Positions 37,181 through 45,987 of a stretch of 64,000 nt of DNA are shown here, in pieces. A model generated the notes under the pieces. That model was not told the origin of the DNA and did not search any database. It worked only from the letters and a program-made list of their open reading frames with translations. The stretch lies in NCBI GenBank assembly GCA_910577505.1, contig CAJTLN010000001.1, forward strand, positions 385,223-449,222, in the 5' to 3' direction. Source of the DNA: an uncultured Bacilli bacterium. Lineage in GTDB: Bacteria > Bacillota_I > Bacilli_A > RF39 > UBA660. Every line of letters starts with the position of its first letter. The first letter of the stretch is position 1. A program made the position numbers and the translations under genes.

Positions 37181-38550
37181 GTGGTAATAATGAAAAAATG
37201 GTCTATTAGAATTTCTTTAGTAATAATATTTTTTAGTTGTTTAATTTTTACAAATATTTCAAACATAAAAGCTTTAGATGATAAAATTACTATTAATTTT
37301 AGAGTATATGATGAAAGTAATGGAAATGTATATAATGTTGGAAGTGAAGAAATACAAAAATTAGAAAGTTCTACTATTCAATATCATTTGCCTTCTTTAA
37401 GTAGTATTCTCGTTCTTCTGCGTCATATGGAAGAGTTACTAAAGTTGTAGGCAATTGGTATTTCCCCTCACATGACTGTCTTGAAGGAGCAAATGTTGAA
37501 TTTTCAAATGATTCATCACAAAAGACAATTACATATTGGGTAACCTGGTATTTGCCAGGAAGTGGAACAGGATCAGGTTCAAATCAAAGTGGTACAATTG
37601 ATCTGGGCGGTAGTGGTAGATATAGTTTGACCGAAACAATCGTATATCATTCTAATTATCCAAATGGGAAAGACTATACATATACTATTACTTACAAAGT
37701 AAAAGCATATACAACTATGTATAATAGCTTTAATCTTATTAAATCACTAGAGCAACTAAACTTTTCTGTCCCTGATGGATATACATTAAAATCTCCTATG
37801 TGGAGTACAAATAAAAATGGAGGCGGTACAGGATATAATTCGGGAGGTACTTTTGTGTTTTACCAATCAAATAACGGAAAAACAACCCATTTATATGCTC
37901 AATATAAACTTGATAGTATTAATGAAAATCCTATTAGTCCAATAAAATTAACATATATGGATGGAAAAACAGTATATACATCATCAACTCTTTTTGAAGG
38001 AGATACTGTAATCATAAAAAAATGTACAAACAACCATGATGGTTATACTTTTGTTGGTTGGGACACAGCTAACTCAGCACAAACGGTTGTTTATAGACCA
38101 GGAGAAAGTATTACTCTCGAAAAAGATACAACTTTATATGCTGTTTGGGAGAAAGAAACGTTAGATGGACAATATCAAGTAAAATGGTATGATGCAGACA
38201 CTGAAAAAGAGATAAAAGAACCAGCCATTAGAAATGGTACTATTGGAAATATAGTTACTGTAACTGAAGAAGATAAAATAATAGATGAATATATTTTTGA
38301 TGAAACTAATGAAAAGAATGTTCTAAGTAAAGAACTAACTAATTCAGAAACAATTCTAAAACTATATTTTAAAAAGAAAACCGATACATCAGAAACACCA
38401 AATGATTCAGAAGACCCAAATAAACCATCAACAGAAATAGAAAACCCTATAACAGGAGATAACTTAATATTAACAATACTAACTTTTACTATATCAGTAA
38501 TAACTATTACATTCATTAGTAAGAAATATAAAAAGATTAAAAGAATTTAA
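37181..38550 (+). pseudogene. Frameshifted cell-surface protein gene: signal peptide, Listeria-Bacteroides (Flg_new) repeats, MucBP-like C-terminal repeat, sorting-signal-like NPITGD plus TM plus basic tail.
   Basis: Frame 2 ORF 37181-37450 carries the signal peptide. Frame 1 is open from 37405 and carries the rest. The frames overlap at 37405-37450 with no homopolymer. Flg_new signature ...GYTFVGW...TLYAVWE. Confidence 0.5.
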
Positions 38551-38579
38551 GTCATAGAAAATATGACTTTTTTCTTTTT
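38550..38579 (+). terminator. Intrinsic terminator after the first surface-protein gene.
   Basis: agtcata-gaaaa-tatgact then TTTTTT. A near-identical element recurs at 41829-41852. Confidence 0.65.
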
Positions 38580-38749
38580 AAAATCGACAAAAAACGACAA
38601 TAATAAACATTTTTCTAATAAATAGGTATATAAAAATGTCATATGGGAAAAATATAAAAATAAGTAAATAGATGTATAAATAGTATCCTTTATATTGTAC
38701 AAGACAATTATTTGTTTTATACTTTAAATATAGTAGTGGAGTTGATTGT

Positions 38750-40042
38750 ATGAACAAAAAATCATTCATTTCAATTATTTTATTAGTCGGATTTTTATTT
38801 TTATCATTTGCAGTATTAATAAAAAAAGATAATATAAGTCTTAATAATGAATTAGATATACCATATAAAACTAAATACTCAGAAGAAGATGTTGAAACAA
38901 GTATAAGACCATTAGTAAATATTAACTCCAAAAATGATGAAGAATTAAGTCTTTCATCTTTAATTAAAGTAAAAGATTTTCAAGCAAAAGATAATTTACA
39001 GATGATTGCTGAAAAAACTCTTTCTTTTTCTCTTAAATATGATGCTAACGGAGGTTCAGAAGCACCATCAAATCAAACAGCAACATCTACTACAAGCAGT
39101 TATAATTTTATAATTTCCGATAAAGAACCAACAAGAAGTGGCTATGAATTCAAAGGTTGGTCTACTTCATCAACAGATCCATCTCCAAATTACCATGTTG
39201 GAGAAACAATTAATGTGACAGGAACAACAACACTCTACGCTGTTTGGGAAGCAATACCTAGATATTATAATTTAAAAAAGATATTTGTGGGACTAGATGA
39301 AATTGATGATAATTTCTATATGGACTATACTGCAACAGCAGGAGATAAAGAAATCTCAACGAGACTAGATTTAAAAAATGCTGAATTTATTGATGAAGAT
39401 ACTATGACAATAACGTGGAAAGCGCCATACTATTACAATACTGGATATAATAATCAAGTAGTAATAAAAGAACATAGTGATGTTATTGGATATTCATATC
39501 ATGCATCATCGTCCTCTGGAAGTACAGATAAGAATATTATAAGATTTACTCTTAGTTCAATGTTAAGTGGAGCAACAAGAACAATAACTAATTATTACCA
39601 AAAGGATATTTCTAATCAAACTACATACTTAGTAAAGTGGTATAATGCAGACACTGAAAAAGAGATAAAAGATTCAGACATCAGAAATGGTATTATTGGA
39701 AATATGGTTACTGTAACTGAAGAAGATAAAATAATAGATGAATATATTTTTGATGAAACTAATGAAAAGAATGTTCTAAGTAAAGAACTAACTAATTCAG
39801 AAACAATCCTAAAACTATATTTTAAAAAGAAAACTGATACCCCAGAAAATACAGATAATCCAGAAAATCCAGGAGCATCAGAAAATCCAGAAATACCAAA
39901 TGATCCAGAAGATCAAAATAAACCATCAACAGAAATAGAAAATCCTATAACAGGTGATAACTTAATATTAACAATACTAACTTTTACTATATCAATAATA
40001 ACTATGACATACTTTTGTAAAAAAATAACATATAAAGGATAA
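38750..40042 (+). CDS. Cell-surface protein with Flg_new (Listeria-Bacteroides) repeat, MucBP-like repeat and C-terminal sorting signal.
   Basis: Signal peptide MNKKSFISIILLVGFLFLSFAVL. LKYDANGGSEAPSNQ...GYEFKGW...TLYAVWE. C-terminal ENPITGDNLILTILTFTISIITMTYFCKK. Confidence 0.6.
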   Translation: MNKKSFISIILLVGFLFLSFAVLIKKDNISLNNELDIPYKTKYSEEDVETSIRPLVNINSKNDEELSLSSLIKVKDFQAKDNLQMIAEKTLSFSLKYDANGGSEAPSNQTATSTTSSYNFIISDKEPTRSGYEFKGWSTSSTDPSPNYHVGETINVTGTTTLYAVWEAIPRYYNLKKIFVGLDEIDDNFYMDYTATAGDKEISTRLDLKNAEFIDEDTMTITWKAPYYYNTGYNNQVVIKEHSDVIGYSYHASSSSGSTDKNIIRFTLSSMLSGATRTITNYYQKDISNQTTYLVKWYNADTEKEIKDSDIRNGIIGNMVTVTEEDKIIDEYIFDETNEKNVLSKELTNSETILKLYFKKKTDTPENTDNPENPGASENPEIPNDPEDQNKPSTEIENPITGDNLILTILTFTISIITMTYFCKKITYKG

Positions 40043-40165
40043 AAAAATCCTTTTTTATTTGGAAATCTTTTCTAATTAATAATGGATAATAATATCTTTA
40101 TCAAAATAAGAAATAATAATAGTAAGCTTTAACTACCTCACCTCAAAACATAAAGTTATCCACAG

Positions 40166-40194
40166 TTGACAAGTGGTCGGGGGGGGGGTAAAAT
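40166..40194 (+). promoter_or_regulatory. Promoter TTGACA-17-TAAAAT whose spacer contains a G10 homopolymer. Candidate slipped-strand phase-variation switch for the downstream surface-protein gene.
   Basis: ttgaca agtggtc gggggggggg taaaat. RBS AAGGAG at 40208-40213, ATG at 40221. G10 is extremely unexpected in this AT-rich sequence. Confidence 0.6.
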
Positions 40195-40220
40195 ATATTT
40201 AATAGTAAAGGAGTAGACAT

Positions 40221-41780
40221 ATGAAAAGAATAAAAAAAGTTATTTTTTTAAGTTTCTTATTGCTTATTAGTTTTTTTATTAATAGTCAAAATAATTTTTT
40301 GAAAGAAAACGTTATAAGAAACATTGATAGAAATAGTAATCAAAATTTGCCTTCAATTGTTAATGATGAAAATAGTATTATTCAACCACTAGCTTTAGTT
40401 CAAGGAGAAAGCTTTACTGTTAAAGTAGTTAAAGTTGTAAATGGAGCAATAGTAGATTCAAAAACCTTAACATCACGATGTTTACAATCAACAGGACACT
40501 CAGGATTTAATCATTCAACTAACTTGAGGAATCTTGCTAATCAATCAGGATTTTCTGGATACAAAGGGTACAATTGGAGCAAATATACTACAGTTCCTAG
40601 TTCTTATACAACTGGATTAGCACCTAATAATAATTATGCATCAATACATTATAATATAACAGGATCACCTCCATATAAAGGAGATGAAACATTATTTTTA
40701 TTCTTTGAAGCATCACATACATTTCAACTTAAATATGATGCTAACGGAGGTTCAGGAGCGCCAGATTCTCAAACAGCAACATCTACTACAAGCAGTTATA
40801 ATTTTATAATTTCTGATAAAGAACCAACAAGAAATGGCTATGAATTCAAAGGTTGGTCTACTTCATCAACATCTCCATCTCCAAATTACCATGTTGGAGA
40901 AACAATTAACGTGACAGGATCAACAACTCTATATGCTGTATGGGAGCGAGTCACAGAAAAAGTAACTCTAACATATATGGATGGAAAAGAAATTGTAGGA
41001 AATGTTGAAGAATACGAAAAAGGTTCAATAGTAAAGGTAAAATATAATGATAACAATCATGGACAAGCTTATATTTTTCGAGGTTGGGATACTGACCCTT
41101 CTGCTCAAAATGTAGTATATAAACCTAATGCAGAATTTACAATAACAGAAAATACAATTCTTTACGCTGTGTGGTATTTTGCACCAGACTTAGTCACTTT
41201 AGATTACAATCCTAATGGTGGTAAAGATGAACCAGGACTTCAAACAGAGTCATACAATGGAGATAGTGTAACTTTTTCTATTTCTAGAAAAGTACCAAAC
41301 AAAACAGGGTTTAAATTTCAAGGTTGGACTAATAATCAAAAAGATTTAGAAACACCTACTCATCAACCTGGAGGAAAAATAACAACTGATAATGATATAA
41401 TCCTATATGCAGTATGGGAAGAAAGATTAGAAACAGATTATGATTATAAAGTTGAATGGTATGATATAGAAGGTAACCTTATTCAAGAAATCGAAACAAG
41501 AACTGCTCCTCTTGGAGAAAAGATATATGTAAAAGAAGATGATAAAAAAATTGATGGATATATTTTTGCAGAAGATTTTGATAAAAATATTTTAACTGAT
41601 ACGTTAAAAGAACAAGATACGGTATTAAGATTATACTTTTACAAAGTTGAAGAAATCACAGAAAATCCAACAACAAGCGATAAAATAATACCTATCTCTA
41701 TAATAGTAATCTCTTTAATATTACTTATAATATATTTATCAAAGCATAAATTTGTTAGTAAATATTATTCTAACAATTAG
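40221..41780 (+). CDS. Cell-surface protein with three Flg_new repeats, a MucBP-like domain and a C-terminal TM anchor.
   Basis: Signal peptide. Repeats ...GYEFKGW...TLYAVWE, ...IFRGW...ILYAVW, ...FKFQGW...ILYAVWE. C-terminal NPTTSD plus hydrophobic segment plus KHK. Confidence 0.6.
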   Translation: MKRIKKVIFLSFLLLISFFINSQNNFLKENVIRNIDRNSNQNLPSIVNDENSIIQPLALVQGESFTVKVVKVVNGAIVDSKTLTSRCLQSTGHSGFNHSTNLRNLANQSGFSGYKGYNWSKYTTVPSSYTTGLAPNNNYASIHYNITGSPPYKGDETLFLFFEASHTFQLKYDANGGSGAPDSQTATSTTSSYNFIISDKEPTRNGYEFKGWSTSSTSPSPNYHVGETINVTGSTTLYAVWERVTEKVTLTYMDGKEIVGNVEEYEKGSIVKVKYNDNNHGQAYIFRGWDTDPSAQNVVYKPNAEFTITENTILYAVWYFAPDLVTLDYNPNGGKDEPGLQTESYNGDSVTFSISRKVPNKTGFKFQGWTNNQKDLETPTHQPGGKITTDNDIILYAVWEERLETDYDYKVEWYDIEGNLIQEIETRTAPLGEKIYVKEDDKKIDGYIFAEDFDKNILTDTLKEQDTVLRLYFYKVEEITENPTTSDKIIPISIIVISLILLIIYLSKHKFVSKYYSNN

Positions 41781-41828
41781 ATATATAATAAGAGTGTAAC
41801 AATAAAAACATAAACAAAATCTTAAAAA

Positions 41829-41852
41829 AGTCATATCACTATGACTTTTTTC
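41829..41852 (+). terminator. Intrinsic terminator after the third surface-protein gene.
   Basis: agtcata-tcac-tatgact then TTTTTT. Confidence 0.65.
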
Positions 41853-41929
41853 TATTGCAACAATCTATATTTCTTGAAGTTTTTCTATCTATAATTTATA
41901 CTATAAATATAGTAAAGTAGTGTGATTAT

Positions 41930-43633
41930 ATGAAAAAGAATTATTTGTTATTTGTACTTTTATTATTAATACCTTCACTTGTATTTGCCAACTCTAAATA
42001 TGAAATAAAAAGTTATGATACAGAAATAACAGTTAACAAAGACGATTTAATATATCACGATGTAGTAGAAGTTGATTTTAAAAATGAACTATTAATATTT
42101 TCTCGTGAGCTGCCAAAAAGTATTAAAGATTTAAAAGTCAGTGATGACTACATAATAAGTTCACCATATAATAAGGTTGTTGAAATAAGTATTTTTGACA
42201 TTGGTACTAAAGTAATTGATTATAATTATACAAATAATTATCAAAAAAAAGATAATGACATATATGAGCTAGAAATAAAAAATACTTTTGAAGATAATTT
42301 AAATAATATAAAATTTACTATTAATTTACTATCTCCAGTTAATAAAAATAATTTAGAATTTTATTTAAATGATCAAAAAATAGAAGACATCAATTATAAT
42401 ATAAAAGATAATAAAATAACAGGAGAATTAAGTTTACTAAAAGAAAACGAGTCTTTAAAAATTAAAATTAATTATGGCATTATATATTTAAATAATATTT
42501 CTATTATAGCAATAATTGTTCCTATCATATTATCATTATTATGTTTATTATTATGGTATATTTATGGAAAAGATCTTCGTATACCAATTGAAAAAGTATC
42601 AAAGATTTCTAATAAGTTTAATCCACTTGATGTATCTTTAATATCTAATGGTAAAGTAGAAGAAAGTGATACTTTCTATTTACTTCTATCTTTAGCTAAT
42701 AAAGGATATATAAAGATAGTTGAAAATTCTAATAATGATTACACTCTAATAAGAGATAAAAAATATGATGGAAAGAAATATAGTGAAGCAACTTTTATCA
42801 AAGAGTTATTTAAAAAAAGAGATTCTGTATCTTTAGCAGATTATGTAAATATAATATCTGAAAGAAAGAAAAGCAAAAAAACAATGGAATTAGAACAGGA
42901 AATAGGTATTAGTTCTTTAGCAACTAGATTTCATCAAGCAAGCAATACTGTTTTATCTATTATAAATACTCCAGAAGAACGAAATAAATATTTTGAAGAT
43001 ATATCAGAAAAAATGAAAATATTTTTAGTGCTTTCAATTGCAATAATATTAGTTTTAGTTACGTCATTACCTTTTATTGAAATAAATAACTTAGTGTTTT
43101 TGCCATTATCAGTAATTTTTAGTATAACAACATTATTCGTTTTAATGAAATTTGTAGAAACATATGATTTTAATAAGAAAAATAGCAAAATAACTATTTT
43201 AGTTATTTTATCTATTATAGTATTATTGATAATTTTAATTCCTTCCTTTAAAAGAAATCGTATATATTTATTAGCTTATTTAATTAGTTGCATAAGTGTA
43301 ACATTTATTCTTTTCTTATACAAATATATGCCAAAAAGAACTTTATATGGCACTAAAGAATATACTAAGATTGAAGGATTTAAATTATTTATAAAAGAAT
43401 TGTCTAATAAGGAATTAGATTCAATACTTGAACTTAATAATAATTATTTGTATGACATACTTCCTTATTCATATATGTTCAAATTAAGTGATCCAGTATT
43501 AAGAAAGCTAAAGGAAAGAAAATCTCAAGAGCCATCATGGTTTGTTTTAAAAGATTCCTTTTCTATTCAAAAATTACATAACGCAATGAATAGATTAAAA
43601 ATTATTTTGGAAGATTATGAAAAGAAGAATTAA
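41930..43633 (+). CDS. DUF2207-like membrane protein (signal peptide, extracellular domain, multiple TM helices).
   Basis: N-terminal signal LLFVLLLLIPSLVFA. Hydrophobic block mid-protein and three to four more TMs. Architecture typical of DUF2207. Tentative. Confidence 0.4.
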   Translation: MKKNYLLFVLLLLIPSLVFANSKYEIKSYDTEITVNKDDLIYHDVVEVDFKNELLIFSRELPKSIKDLKVSDDYIISSPYNKVVEISIFDIGTKVIDYNYTNNYQKKDNDIYELEIKNTFEDNLNNIKFTINLLSPVNKNNLEFYLNDQKIEDINYNIKDNKITGELSLLKENESLKIKINYGIIYLNNISIIAIIVPIILSLLCLLLWYIYGKDLRIPIEKVSKISNKFNPLDVSLISNGKVEESDTFYLLLSLANKGYIKIVENSNNDYTLIRDKKYDGKKYSEATFIKELFKKRDSVSLADYVNIISERKKSKKTMELEQEIGISSLATRFHQASNTVLSIINTPEERNKYFEDISEKMKIFLVLSIAIILVLVTSLPFIEINNLVFLPLSVIFSITTLFVLMKFVETYDFNKKNSKITILVILSIIVLLIILIPSFKRNRIYLLAYLISCISVTFILFLYKYMPKRTLYGTKEYTKIEGFKLFIKELSNKELDSILELNNNYLYDILPYSYMFKLSDPVLRKLKERKSQEPSWFVLKDSFSIQKLHNAMNRLKIILEDYEKKN

Positions 43634-43737: not shown

Positions 43738-45987
43738 ATGTCTTTTTTATTATTGTTGTTAGTAGTACTTATTGCCATAGAAAATTCCAAATTAAAAAAG
43801 GAAAATATTGAATTAAAAGAAAGACTAAATAACTGGAATCAAGCAAGATTATCTAATAATTATTCAGTATTTCAAAGGACTAATAATACTCAATCAATGC
43901 CTGTTAATGTACAAACTGAAATACAGAACAATCAAAATCAACTTTCTATTTCAAAAAACAATCAAATACAAAAGAAACAATCGCCATCAGCTCTTTTTAT
44001 TATTGGAGCAATTCTAGTAATATTTGCATCCATAATATTTTTATCATCATCATGGATGTTTTTGCCAGGAATAATAAAAACTGTTTTTTTAATAATTCTT
44101 CAATTTATTTTTGGCTTTTTATCAAAAATGTGCCTTGAAAAGTTTTCACTAGATAAGGCTTCTAAAGCTTTTAAATACATTTTTTTAGCTTTCATTCCAG
44201 TTGTTTTACTATCTTTATCATTTTTTGAATTAGTTGGTTATTTCTTATCAATAGGATATGATGGTTTTACATTATATATATCTTTAACCTTTGTCATAAC
44301 ATCTATAATATATAAGTATATTGCTAAAAAAGAAAGTGACTTATTTTTAAATATAATTAGTTTAATTTGTGAAATTTTATCACTAACATTTGCAGTTATT
44401 TTCTTTGAATTTGACATTTTTACATATTTATTAATAATATCAATTTATAATATTATCATTTCTATTCTTTTACAAAAAAATTATTTAGATAAGAGAATTT
44501 ATGAAAAAATAAATCAAATAATGATATATTGTACTTTAATATTTTTAACCTTTTCACTTACATATGGTAAAATAATCTCTCACATAAATGTTATTATTTA
44601 CACAATATATTTCTTATATAATGCCATAAAGTCATCAGAAAAGAAAGAAAAGAAAAAATATACAATATTAAGCTTAATAGGATATACACTTTCTATAAAT
44701 ATAATTAATTTATTACTAAATAATACAGTCTACATAATAAGTTTAATTGCTATATTACCTTTATTTTTATTCAATAAACTTATTCAAGAAGATTATTTAA
44801 AGAAAATTATTATTAACGGAGCAGGTATAATTACTTCTATTATTTTAATATTTATAATTTTTAATCCAGAGAAAACTATAATCTTTATTTTGTCTTTCTT
44901 AATATCGACAATTATTTATGTTATTACATTGTTCTTAAGTAAAAATAATGCATATAAATATTTATCATATTTTAGTTTCTTGTTATTTTTAGCAGCAATT
45001 AACTATATAACAGAAATTGAGACTTTTGGAAAATATATTCCTTTAATAGTAGCATCGATTATCTATTTATTTGAAAGTATTCTTCCTTCTTTAAAAGACT
45101 CAGCATCAAATATAATTATAATTCTACTTATAACTTTAGAATCTATACTTCTGATAAATTCGTATTCAGTTTTAATACCTTTAATATTATTAATTATTTT
45201 TGTAATTACTGAGAAAGAAAAGGATGCCTGTTTAATAGTTCCAATCCTATGTGCATTATCAATCATTTTTATAAAAGATAATATAGTACCTAAGACATTT
45301 GGCTTCTTGACTTCCATTTCTTTAAGTTCAATATCTATTTATAAAAAGAAAGTTAATCAATATTCAATATTATCTCTAATTTATTTCTTTACAATAACAG
45401 TAGCATTTGACTATCCAATAGAAATTCTATTTTTATTAATCCTTATATGGAGTATAACTCATTTTATAATTAACAAAGGAGATAGCAAATTCTATAAAAT
45501 AACAGCTATTATTAGTTTTTTAGGTTTATATACATCTCTTTTACTTAACTCTAACATAGAAATAATATCTTTATATGCTGTTGGTTACTATTTTGGTTTA
45601 ATTTATACAACTAGATACATAATAAAAGATGATTTTATCGATTGTAAGTTTTTAGAATATTATGGATTTTCTATAATAACTTTAATAAGTTTAATAAATA
45701 TTGAATTTATCTATGACGGACTTTTATTAACTATAACTTTAATTGCAATAAGTTTCTTAAGTTACGCATTAAAATATAATTCATATTTTAAAGTATCAAA
45801 TATTTTTATATTTATTAATTTGCTTTTTCTAACGTCTAAATATCTATTCCAAATTCCATGGTATATATATATTTTAATTATTGGCTGCACATTCTTATCA
45901 TACGCTATTTATGATGAAAAAAAGAAAAAACAAGATAGCAGAAATAAATTTAATAAAAATAATAACGAATATATTTATAAAAAATAG
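43738..45987 (+). CDS. Large polytopic membrane protein (hypothetical), ~20 predicted TM helices.
   Basis: 749-aa ORF dominated by hydrophobic helices. N-terminal coiled-coil/Q-rich segment. Confidence 0.4.
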   Translation: MSFLLLLLVVLIAIENSKLKKENIELKERLNNWNQARLSNNYSVFQRTNNTQSMPVNVQTEIQNNQNQLSISKNNQIQKKQSPSALFIIGAILVIFASIIFLSSSWMFLPGIIKTVFLIILQFIFGFLSKMCLEKFSLDKASKAFKYIFLAFIPVVLLSLSFFELVGYFLSIGYDGFTLYISLTFVITSIIYKYIAKKESDLFLNIISLICEILSLTFAVIFFEFDIFTYLLIISIYNIIISILLQKNYLDKRIYEKINQIMIYCTLIFLTFSLTYGKIISHINVIIYTIYFLYNAIKSSEKKEKKKYTILSLIGYTLSINIINLLLNNTVYIISLIAILPLFLFNKLIQEDYLKKIIINGAGIITSIILIFIIFNPEKTIIFILSFLISTIIYVITLFLSKNNAYKYLSYFSFLLFLAAINYITEIETFGKYIPLIVASIIYLFESILPSLKDSASNIIIILLITLESILLINSYSVLIPLILLIIFVITEKEKDACLIVPILCALSIIFIKDNIVPKTFGFLTSISLSSISIYKKKVNQYSILSLIYFFTITVAFDYPIEILFLLILIWSITHFIINKGDSKFYKITAIISFLGLYTSLLLNSNIEIISLYAVGYYFGLIYTTRYIIKDDFIDCKFLEYYGFSIITLISLINIEFIYDGLLLTITLIAISFLSYALKYNSYFKVSNIFIFINLLFLTSKYLFQIPWYIYILIIGCTFLSYAIYDEKKKKQDSRNKFNKNNNEYIYKK

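Follow-up and report, generated by a model that had tools for sequence, protein, structure and literature searches.

Surface proteins of Firmicutes that are assembled from Flg_new and MucBP repeats, such as YwfG with its stalk, Listeria lmo0835 and Lactobacillus Mub, carry an N-terminal head on a chain of beta-grasp modules and end in a C-terminal sorting signal. In class B sortase substrates, for example IsdC of B. anthracis (DNPKTGDE) and IsdC of S. aureus (NPQTN), the signal starts with Asn-Pro, and a hydrophobic helix and a basic tail come after it. Antigenic variation by gene conversion is known from Neisseria pilE/pilS, Borrelia vlsE and Mycoplasma genitalium MgPa/MgPar, in which paralogs have cassettes in common and one copy is not expressible. 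In Mycoplasma hyorhinis vlp, a poly-A tract in the promoter spacer underlies transcriptional phase variation, and in Neisseria porA (poly-G), fetA and opc (poly-C) a mononucleotide run, of a length that differs between strains, is found between the -35 and -10 elements of a surface-protein gene. Homopolymer tracts at this position are an established source of phase variation in Neisseria fetA and porA (PMC5320596). Here we describe a locus that resembles each of these systems in part: three tandem genes for modular surface proteins, all on the plus strand, in a 64-kb stretch of DNA (contig CAJTLN010000001.1; hereafter the window, to which all coordinates refer unless stated otherwise) from an uncultured Bacilli bacterium. 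An initial annotation of the window had taken this array for a mosaic gene family that undergoes ongoing antigenic or adhesin variation.

We consider it reasonably likely that the locus is a lineage-specific array of three paralogs, one of them a fixed pseudogene, which encodes modular surface proteins formed by old domain shuffling and which is now variable through a G10 tract in a promoter. We infer that the proteins are probably adhesins. The window has a G+C content of about 25%, and its NrdD is 97% identical to that of an "uncultured Bacilli" metagenome-assembled genome (MAG) from mouse gut and 89-91% identical to those of Candidatus Coprovivens MAGs. Candidatus Coprovivens belongs to family CAG-1000 of the order RF39 (PMC8035907), and the host is an uncultured gut RF39 bacterium close to it. 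The mechanisms involved, modular sortase-type adhesins and phase variation by simple sequence repeats, are known already, and the array adds a further member to them from a little-known lineage.

The list of open reading frames (ORFs) and their translations bear out the three tandem genes of the initial annotation, and all three exceed the Pfam gathering score (27 bits) of Flg_new (PF09479, a family also represented by TIGR02543, InlB B-repeat), with 32.9 bits and one copy in gene 1, 43.6 bits and one copy in gene 2 and 88.4 bits and three copies in gene 3. Gene 1 (37190-38550) is split by a frameshift, as seen in the ORF list and the three-frame translation. Its 5' part (37190..37450), annotated as an 86-aa gene in the assemblies, starts with an ATG at 37190 preceded by a GGTGG ribosome-binding site, encodes the signal peptide and the beginning of the head, and ends at a stop caused by the frameshift. 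The 3' part (37405..38550), delimited by ORF, Pfam matches and alignments, continues in a second frame with a degenerate B-repeat-like stretch (37639-37905, read by eye and lacking a Pfam match), one Flg_new repeat (37942-38151), a MucBP-like module (38173-38379), a linker and an NPITGD motif (38443-38460) ahead of a transmembrane helix and a basic tail. Gene 2 (38750..40042; 430 aa) is intact. Behind its signal peptide, a unique N-terminal region leads into Flg_new cassette A (39032-39250), which a middle region, also unique (39254-39607), separates from the MucBP-like module (39626-39832); the PEN-rich linker that comes next contains an insertion of 15 aa (39842-39886), and NPITGD (39941-39958) is again followed by a transmembrane helix and tail. 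Gene 3 (40221..41780; 519 aa), likewise intact, has an AGGAG ribosome-binding site ahead of its start codon and encodes a signal peptide, a conserved head (40386-40724), three Flg_new repeats A, B and C (40728-40946, 40962-41177 and 41193-41420), a MucBP-like module (41445-41648) and NPTTSD (41664-41681) before the transmembrane helix and tail.

These genes have diverged module by module, as expected of the mosaic family that had been proposed. The 3' module common to genes 1 and 2 (38178..38546 versus 39631-40040) is 92.9% identical over 351 aligned nucleotides, which upholds the sharing noted earlier and lowers the identity of about 95% given for it, and the in-frame PEN-repeat insertion of gene 2 relative to gene 1, put at 54 bp, comes to 45 nt in the alignment (PENTDNPENPGASEN). 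The Flg_new cassette common to genes 2 and 3 (39032-39250 versus 40728-40946) is indeed shared, at 92% nucleotide identity and not, as had been stated, in nearly identical form. All other module pairs are 58-68% identical. The number of synonymous substitutions per synonymous site (dS) is 0.12 for the MucBP-like module and 0.17 for the tail between genes 1 and 2 and 0.19 for B-repeat A between genes 2 and 3, compared with 0.7-1.1 for every other module pair, including pairs with the single-copy ortholog described below. The edges of identity of both shared cassettes are sharp and fall on domain boundaries. Such discordance of dS between modules is the mark of segmental exchange and not of whole-gene duplication alone.

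Non-coding pieces recur along with the coding modules. Terminator hairpin A follows gene 1 (38549..38573; -11 kcal/mol) and gene 3 (41824..41851; -10.4 kcal/mol) and has the form AGTCATA-N4/5-TATGACT-T6 expected from the initial annotation, which had recognized the two as copies of one element; the terminator of the ortholog is a further copy. The hairpin after gene 2 (40034..40056; -5.8 kcal/mol, z-score -0.8) is weak, terminator-like and unrelated to terminator A. A block in the promoter region of gene 1 (37060..37136) is 85% identical to an 80-nt stretch that was aligned with it upstream of gene 2 (38584..38663), and the block is recognizable upstream of the ortholog as well. The leader and start codon of gene 2 (38714..38757) match, as a copy at about 85% identity, the leader (41893-41936) of the DUF2207 gene downstream, which places one duplication breakpoint at the start of that gene. 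A derivation of the gene 2 N-terminus from the DUF2207 protein itself was considered and rejected, as only the non-coding leader is common to both.

The locus of a related species (L095; DUF2207 protein 62% identical) holds one gene, P0004, between the same flanking genes. A head of the gene 3 type opens P0004, and B-repeats A and B, one MucBP-like module, a PEN linker and NPITKD come after it in this order. Sequence similar to the block that precedes genes 1 and 2 is found ahead of P0004, and the terminator behind it is like terminator A. In a third species (L101; flank gene 62% identical), the gene P0216, with a different head and an ENPVTGDN anchor, directly follows the same upstream flank gene, on a contig that ends just past P0216 and from which the copy number therefore cannot be read. 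A homology between the heads of gene 1 and P0216 was rejected because the match was not significant (E = 0.03). Given a single-copy relative at the same position, the three-gene state is derived, and the head is the part that varies across species. Judging from these sequences, the array arose in the host lineage by duplication and domain-level recombination, in the course of which promoter, leader and terminator pieces were copied too. Further orthologous loci were sought through the DUF2207 neighbour; the scan of genome contigs returned none and the metagenome scan with an alignment query only the L095 locus, so that a set of moderately diverged orthologs is lacking and a test for gene conversion is weak.

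The frame change in gene 1 was located by frame comparison to 37405..37447, where it is equivalent to a 1-nt deletion. This interval contains no homopolymer, repeat or slippery heptamer that could serve as a programmed-frameshift signal, and programmed frameshifting was rejected on the ground that both the slippery heptamer and the repeat are absent. The frameshift is the same in five samples (L003, L004, L099 and L100 among those compared). Since it is fixed and lies at neither a repeat nor a slippery site, gene 1 is a pseudogene, and the frameshifted member, which the initial annotation had counted among the signs of a variation locus, is not borne out as a reversible switch.

In the sequence of events that we propose, a single ancestral gene would have become three by tandem duplication and recombination at domain boundaries, which would have left genes 1 and 2 with a common stalk end and anchor and genes 2 and 3 with a common first B-repeat, while gene 3 would be the member that retained the ancestral head. 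The head of each protein is the presumed ligand-binding part; the predicted stalk is formed by beta-grasp modules (InlB-type B-repeats and one MucBP-like module) and continues into an acidic Pro-rich linker; and in the putative anchor a sorting signal like that of class B sortase substrates (E-NPxTG-D) precedes the membrane helix and the basic tail.

The MucBP-like modules, roughly 69 aa long and positioned before each linker, are below the Pfam cut-off (PF06458; 23 bits) when taken in isolation, scoring 19.2 bits in gene 2, 15.6 bits in gene 3 and giving no match in gene 1. The MucBP label of the initial annotation rests on homologous repeats at the equivalent position in the related proteins P0002 and P0003, which pass Pfam MucBP (45.8 and 72 bits), and on fold matches. 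In an AlphaFold model of gene 3, the B-repeat and MucBP-like modules are confident, with a predicted local distance difference test score (pLDDT) of 82-96, and Foldseek matched the model to L. lactis YwfG, the InlB B-repeat (2y5p; TM-score 0.71 on target), the lmo0835 MucBP domain (2kt7/2kvz; probability 1.00, but E 0.02-0.08) and an immunoglobulin-binding protein of R. gnavus. A sequence search of the PDB gave only a marginal InlB match, and a cluster look-up of the array proteins yielded no protein names. The array follows the general plan of Flg_new/MucBP surface proteins of Firmicutes, but it differs from them in its sub-threshold MucBP-like modules, in the heads of genes 1 and 2, which have no detectable relatives, and in an anchor signal of the NPxTG-D and not the LPxTG type.

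The gene 3 head (residues 56-168) is a 113-aa domain without a Pfam match, and it is rare, with 30 matches among 1.84 billion cluster representatives. About 20 of the 30 are 69-80% identical to it in the head stretch; they all fall into different 50%-identity clusters, Lachnospiraceae proteins included, and the proteins that contain them are between 124 and 1480 aa long; among the shortest, several look like fragments. One Cys and two His residues of the head are conserved (CLQSTGHSGYNHS), and its model shows no clear fold (pLDDT 50-77). The pattern points to strong constraint on the domain or to its horizontal spread among Firmicutes of the gut.

All three proteins carry a signal peptide and, as the initial annotation had it, a C-terminal NPITGD or NPTTSD motif with a transmembrane helix and a basic tail. 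The motif reads ENPITGDN in genes 1 and 2 and ENPTTSDK in gene 3, with a hydrophobic helix and a Lys-rich tail behind it, so that each protein shows the three elements of a sorting signal, namely pentapeptide, hydrophobic stretch and positive tail: NPITG-D, 20 hydrophobic residues and KKYKKIKRI in gene 1, NPITG-D, helix and KKITYKG in gene 2, and NPTTS-D, helix and KHKFVSK in gene 3. SrtB of B. anthracis acts on DNPKTGDE and needs Asp at P2' (PMC11987632), and E-NPITG-DN of genes 1 and 2, like E-NPVTG-DN of P0216, conforms to this class B substrate motif (NPxTG with Asp at P2'). Beyond the Asn-Pro start, the helix and the basic tail, which they have in common with class B substrates at large, the array signals thus resemble the B. 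anthracis type in the Thr-Gly pair of the cleavage site, in the acidic residue at P5 and in Asp at P2'. They differ in that gene 3 deviates at P1', where it has Ser, in that no sortase is encoded adjacent to the array, and in that the cargo is an adhesin-like repeat protein and not, as in IsdC, a NEAT haem-binding protein. Among homologs, the motif aligns with VPQTGDN in one Clostridia protein, and others have LPKTG or APETGD ahead of the C-terminal helix. From the type of signal, wall anchoring by a class B sortase appears plausible, least so for gene 3.

The best promoter-like site of the locus (40166..40194), which consists of TTGACA, a 17-nt spacer and TAAAAT and agrees with the consensus at 11 of 12 positions, precedes gene 3, and its -10 hexamer ends 27 nt upstream of the start codon. 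A G10 tract (40179..40188) takes up most of the spacer and is the only G or C run of at least 6 nt in the window, in which 0.05 G8 matches are expected; none of 100 shuffles produced a comparable tract. Among assembled consensus sequences, the tract is G10 in the window and in ERZ778489 and G9 in GCA_964018015.1, with otherwise identical flanks. No G tract is found ahead of the family gene in either of the two related species (L095 and L101). The initial annotation's G-tract-controlled member was therefore correctly recognized in so far as a mononucleotide tract lies between the predicted -35 and -10 elements of gene 3 and differs in length between assemblies, and a role as promoter-spacer switch is credible. 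Slipped-strand changes that convert the 17-nt spacer of G10 into the 16-nt spacer of G9 would raise or lower gene 3 transcription, and present-day variability would come mainly from this tract. The likeness to porA, fetA and opc extends to its position and its variable length, whereas the host here is an uncultured RF39 member of the Bacilli, the tract is the sole one of its kind in 64 kb, and two lengths have been seen, in a system known from sequence alone.

Several observations weigh against our reading. For the heads of genes 1 and 2, there are no homologs with a known function, and the structure models are of low confidence. The Gly required by a sortase signal is replaced by Ser in gene 3 and by Lys in the L095 ortholog (NPITKD). 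The window encodes no protein with the TLxTC signature of a sortase, and a sortase search seeded with the class B enzyme of a related MAG (L067) found none in the host among the matches listed, all at least 84% identical to the query. The two tract lengths come from two assembled consensus sequences, and poly-G is error-prone in short reads. Finally, promoter-like matches in this AT-rich region occur overall at chance level (39 found versus 36.8 expected).

The lost Gly and the missing sortase would both be accommodated if the proteins were not wall-anchored at all, the NPxTG-like motif being a relic and the C-terminal helix holding them in the membrane. Such a state would fit a reduced, Mollicutes-related lineage such as RF39, in which the peptidoglycan precursor pathways are incomplete (PMC10868615), and for gene 3 and P0004 the replacement of Gly implies that anchoring may rest on the membrane helix alone. 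For the family as a whole we nevertheless regard this explanation as unlikely, since E-NP(I/V)TG-DN, including Asp at P2', is kept in genes 1 and 2 and in P0216 of another species, and since the one SrtB found among the 96 loci scanned, a class B sortase (TIGR03064; 176.6 bits, cut-off 153.75), is encoded by a related MAG, L067. Moreover, RF39 genomes are predicted to be mostly peptidoglycan-walled, and loss of srtA/B is reported for RFN20 and ML615J-28 only and is not stated for RF39 (PMC10868615). In L067, an 'uncultured Tenericutes' MAG (UMGS1739), the sortase gene (1500-2549 of that locus) is located directly upstream of nrdD; the position upstream of nrdD in the window (55452-56609) is occupied by an unrelated gene.

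A different view of the array, put forward in the initial annotation, is that of a locus of active antigenic or adhesin variation, whose paralogs still exchange cassettes by gene conversion. On this view, the frameshifted gene 1 would be a silent donor of sequence to genes 2 and 3, which are expressed. The mosaic pattern of divergence and the different heads that other species have at the same locus are in keeping with it, as are the 381-codon open frame that gene 1 retains behind its frameshift and a perfect 101-nt run in the module common to genes 1 and 2, which is longer than in 99.6% of mismatch permutations (P about 0.004). We compared strains using 3 assemblies and 9 Logan contigs. The power of this sample is low, since identity between strains is about 99.9% (18 differences over 21 kb and 13 over 11 kb). 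Across the array, they differ in four respects: the G tract, one non-synonymous single-nucleotide polymorphism in gene 3, an A6/A5 tract and a cluster of 4 substitutions. The A6 tract (38585-38590) belongs to the wider region that was copied ahead of gene 2, where it immediately precedes the aligned block on the 5' side; in GCA_964018015.1 and GCA_965647905.1 it is shortened to A5. The cluster, which comprises 4 substitutions in 16 nt of gene 3 (41141..41156) in three Logan samples and causes one E-to-K and two synonymous changes, may be a short recombination tract, but no donor for it was found in the window within 3 mismatches. Together with the 101-nt run, it provides weak hints of later conversion.

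Against continuing exchange stands the age of the cassettes: their divergence of 7-8% (dS 0.12-0.19) exceeds that between strains (about 0.1%) by a factor of about 100, and the exchanges are therefore old. Wherever strain contigs cover the cassettes, arrangement and sequence are identical (five samples for gene 1, three assemblies for gene 2). In locus types of the pilE/pilS, vlsE and MgPa/MgPar kind, the array's common cassettes and its non-expressible copy have a parallel, but the array has three copies only, with no further family member in the window and no close one in the protein database, and its cassettes, diverged as they are, are the same in the sampled strains. Expressed cassettes that differ between close isolates and can be traced to silent donors, the hallmark of a gene-conversion locus, were not seen. 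Invariance of the loci in related strains, which the initial annotation had named as evidence that would overturn its interpretation, is formally what we find, in strains so nearly clonal that the comparison is a weak test. Ongoing cassette exchange is thus not borne out, and we judge active variation of this kind to be quite improbable.

The near-invariance of the locus among strains could also be taken to the opposite extreme, namely that the array consists of static paralogs that arose by old duplication and divergence and undergo no programmed variation, the G-tract difference being a sequencing or assembly error. Poly-G is a weak point of short-read data, one contig of GCA_965647905.1 starts inside the tract, so that the assembly breaks there, and the chance frequency of promoter-like matches in the region points in the same direction. 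A G10 run at about 25% G+C is, however, far from chance by the expectation and the shuffles given above, and it falls exactly into the spacer of an 11/12 promoter; the gene that begins 27 nt downstream has a good ribosome-binding site. In addition, among the 102 homopolymers of at least 6 nt in 21 kb, only the G tract and the A6 tract ahead of gene 2 differ in length, while each of the other 100 is equally long in the two assemblies. Static paralogs thus seem to us a rather doubtful description of the array. An origin of the repeats in faulty assembly, as a collapsed or chimeric duplication, had been allowed for by the initial annotation, and short-read contigs that stop within the repeats might point to it. 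It can be dismissed, as the copies differ at 7-8% of sites and two independent assemblies span the whole array in identical arrangement, with a third (GCA_965647905.1) showing it in two contigs that break at the G tract. The termination of Logan short-read contigs inside exact-identity runs, at 38283 and 40880, is what real repeats should cause.

Within the reading that we favour, a lineage-specific array with old shuffling and a variable promoter, the locus offers a candidate family of adhesins, with an anchor signal resembling that of class B sortase substrates, in RF39, whose members are common uncultured gut inhabitants about whose attachment to and interaction with the host almost nothing is known. 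It also provides a clear example of how duplication and domain shuffling may turn one gene into a family, and in the poly-G promoter spacer a testable candidate on/off switch; its value is descriptive, for the RF39 lineage. A bolder and distinctly speculative idea, which we think improbable, is that the site between the 240-aa gene and the DUF2207 gene is a head-swapping hotspot of RF39. Recombination there would use the conserved stalk and anchor modules as handles, by which new N-terminal heads could be captured, stacked and exchanged; gene 1 would be kept as a silent donor, and the poly-G tract would switch the copy with the ancestral head on and off. If true, this would amount to a Mycoplasma-like surface contingency system in an uncultured lineage that has a cell wall and is sister to the Mollicutes.

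Elsewhere in the window, a 749-aa polytopic membrane protein without a family match is encoded at 43738-45987, between the genes for DUF2207 and the CCA-adding enzyme; it is absent from the syntenic L095 locus, and in three Logan samples (L008, L011 and L012) C is replaced by A at 45797, which cuts the protein to 686 aa. An A8 tract (50348-50355) near the 5' end of a 195-aa gene of unassigned function (50332-50919) is A7 in L009 (SRR31374192), which splits the gene into ORFs of 44 and 121 aa; this may be a coding phase-variable tract or a sequencing error. A GroEL-like gene (2230-3816) scores under every NCBIfam GroEL cut-off (e.g. 332 versus 352 bits) and looks unusually divergent, and a LigD-type protein (8584-10005) combines phosphoesterase and polymerase domains as in non-homologous end joining, in a lineage with small genomes. 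Upstream of the array, on the minus strand (33540-36268), a conserved cluster encodes uracil-DNA-glycosylase-family, NUDIX and PHP-domain proteins together with several unassigned ones, and a gene at 198-1520 partially matches the radical SAM family 'rSAM_link_UDG', far below threshold (72.8 versus 343.5 bits). This cluster and the rSAM_link_UDG-like gene may form a DNA modification or repair module.

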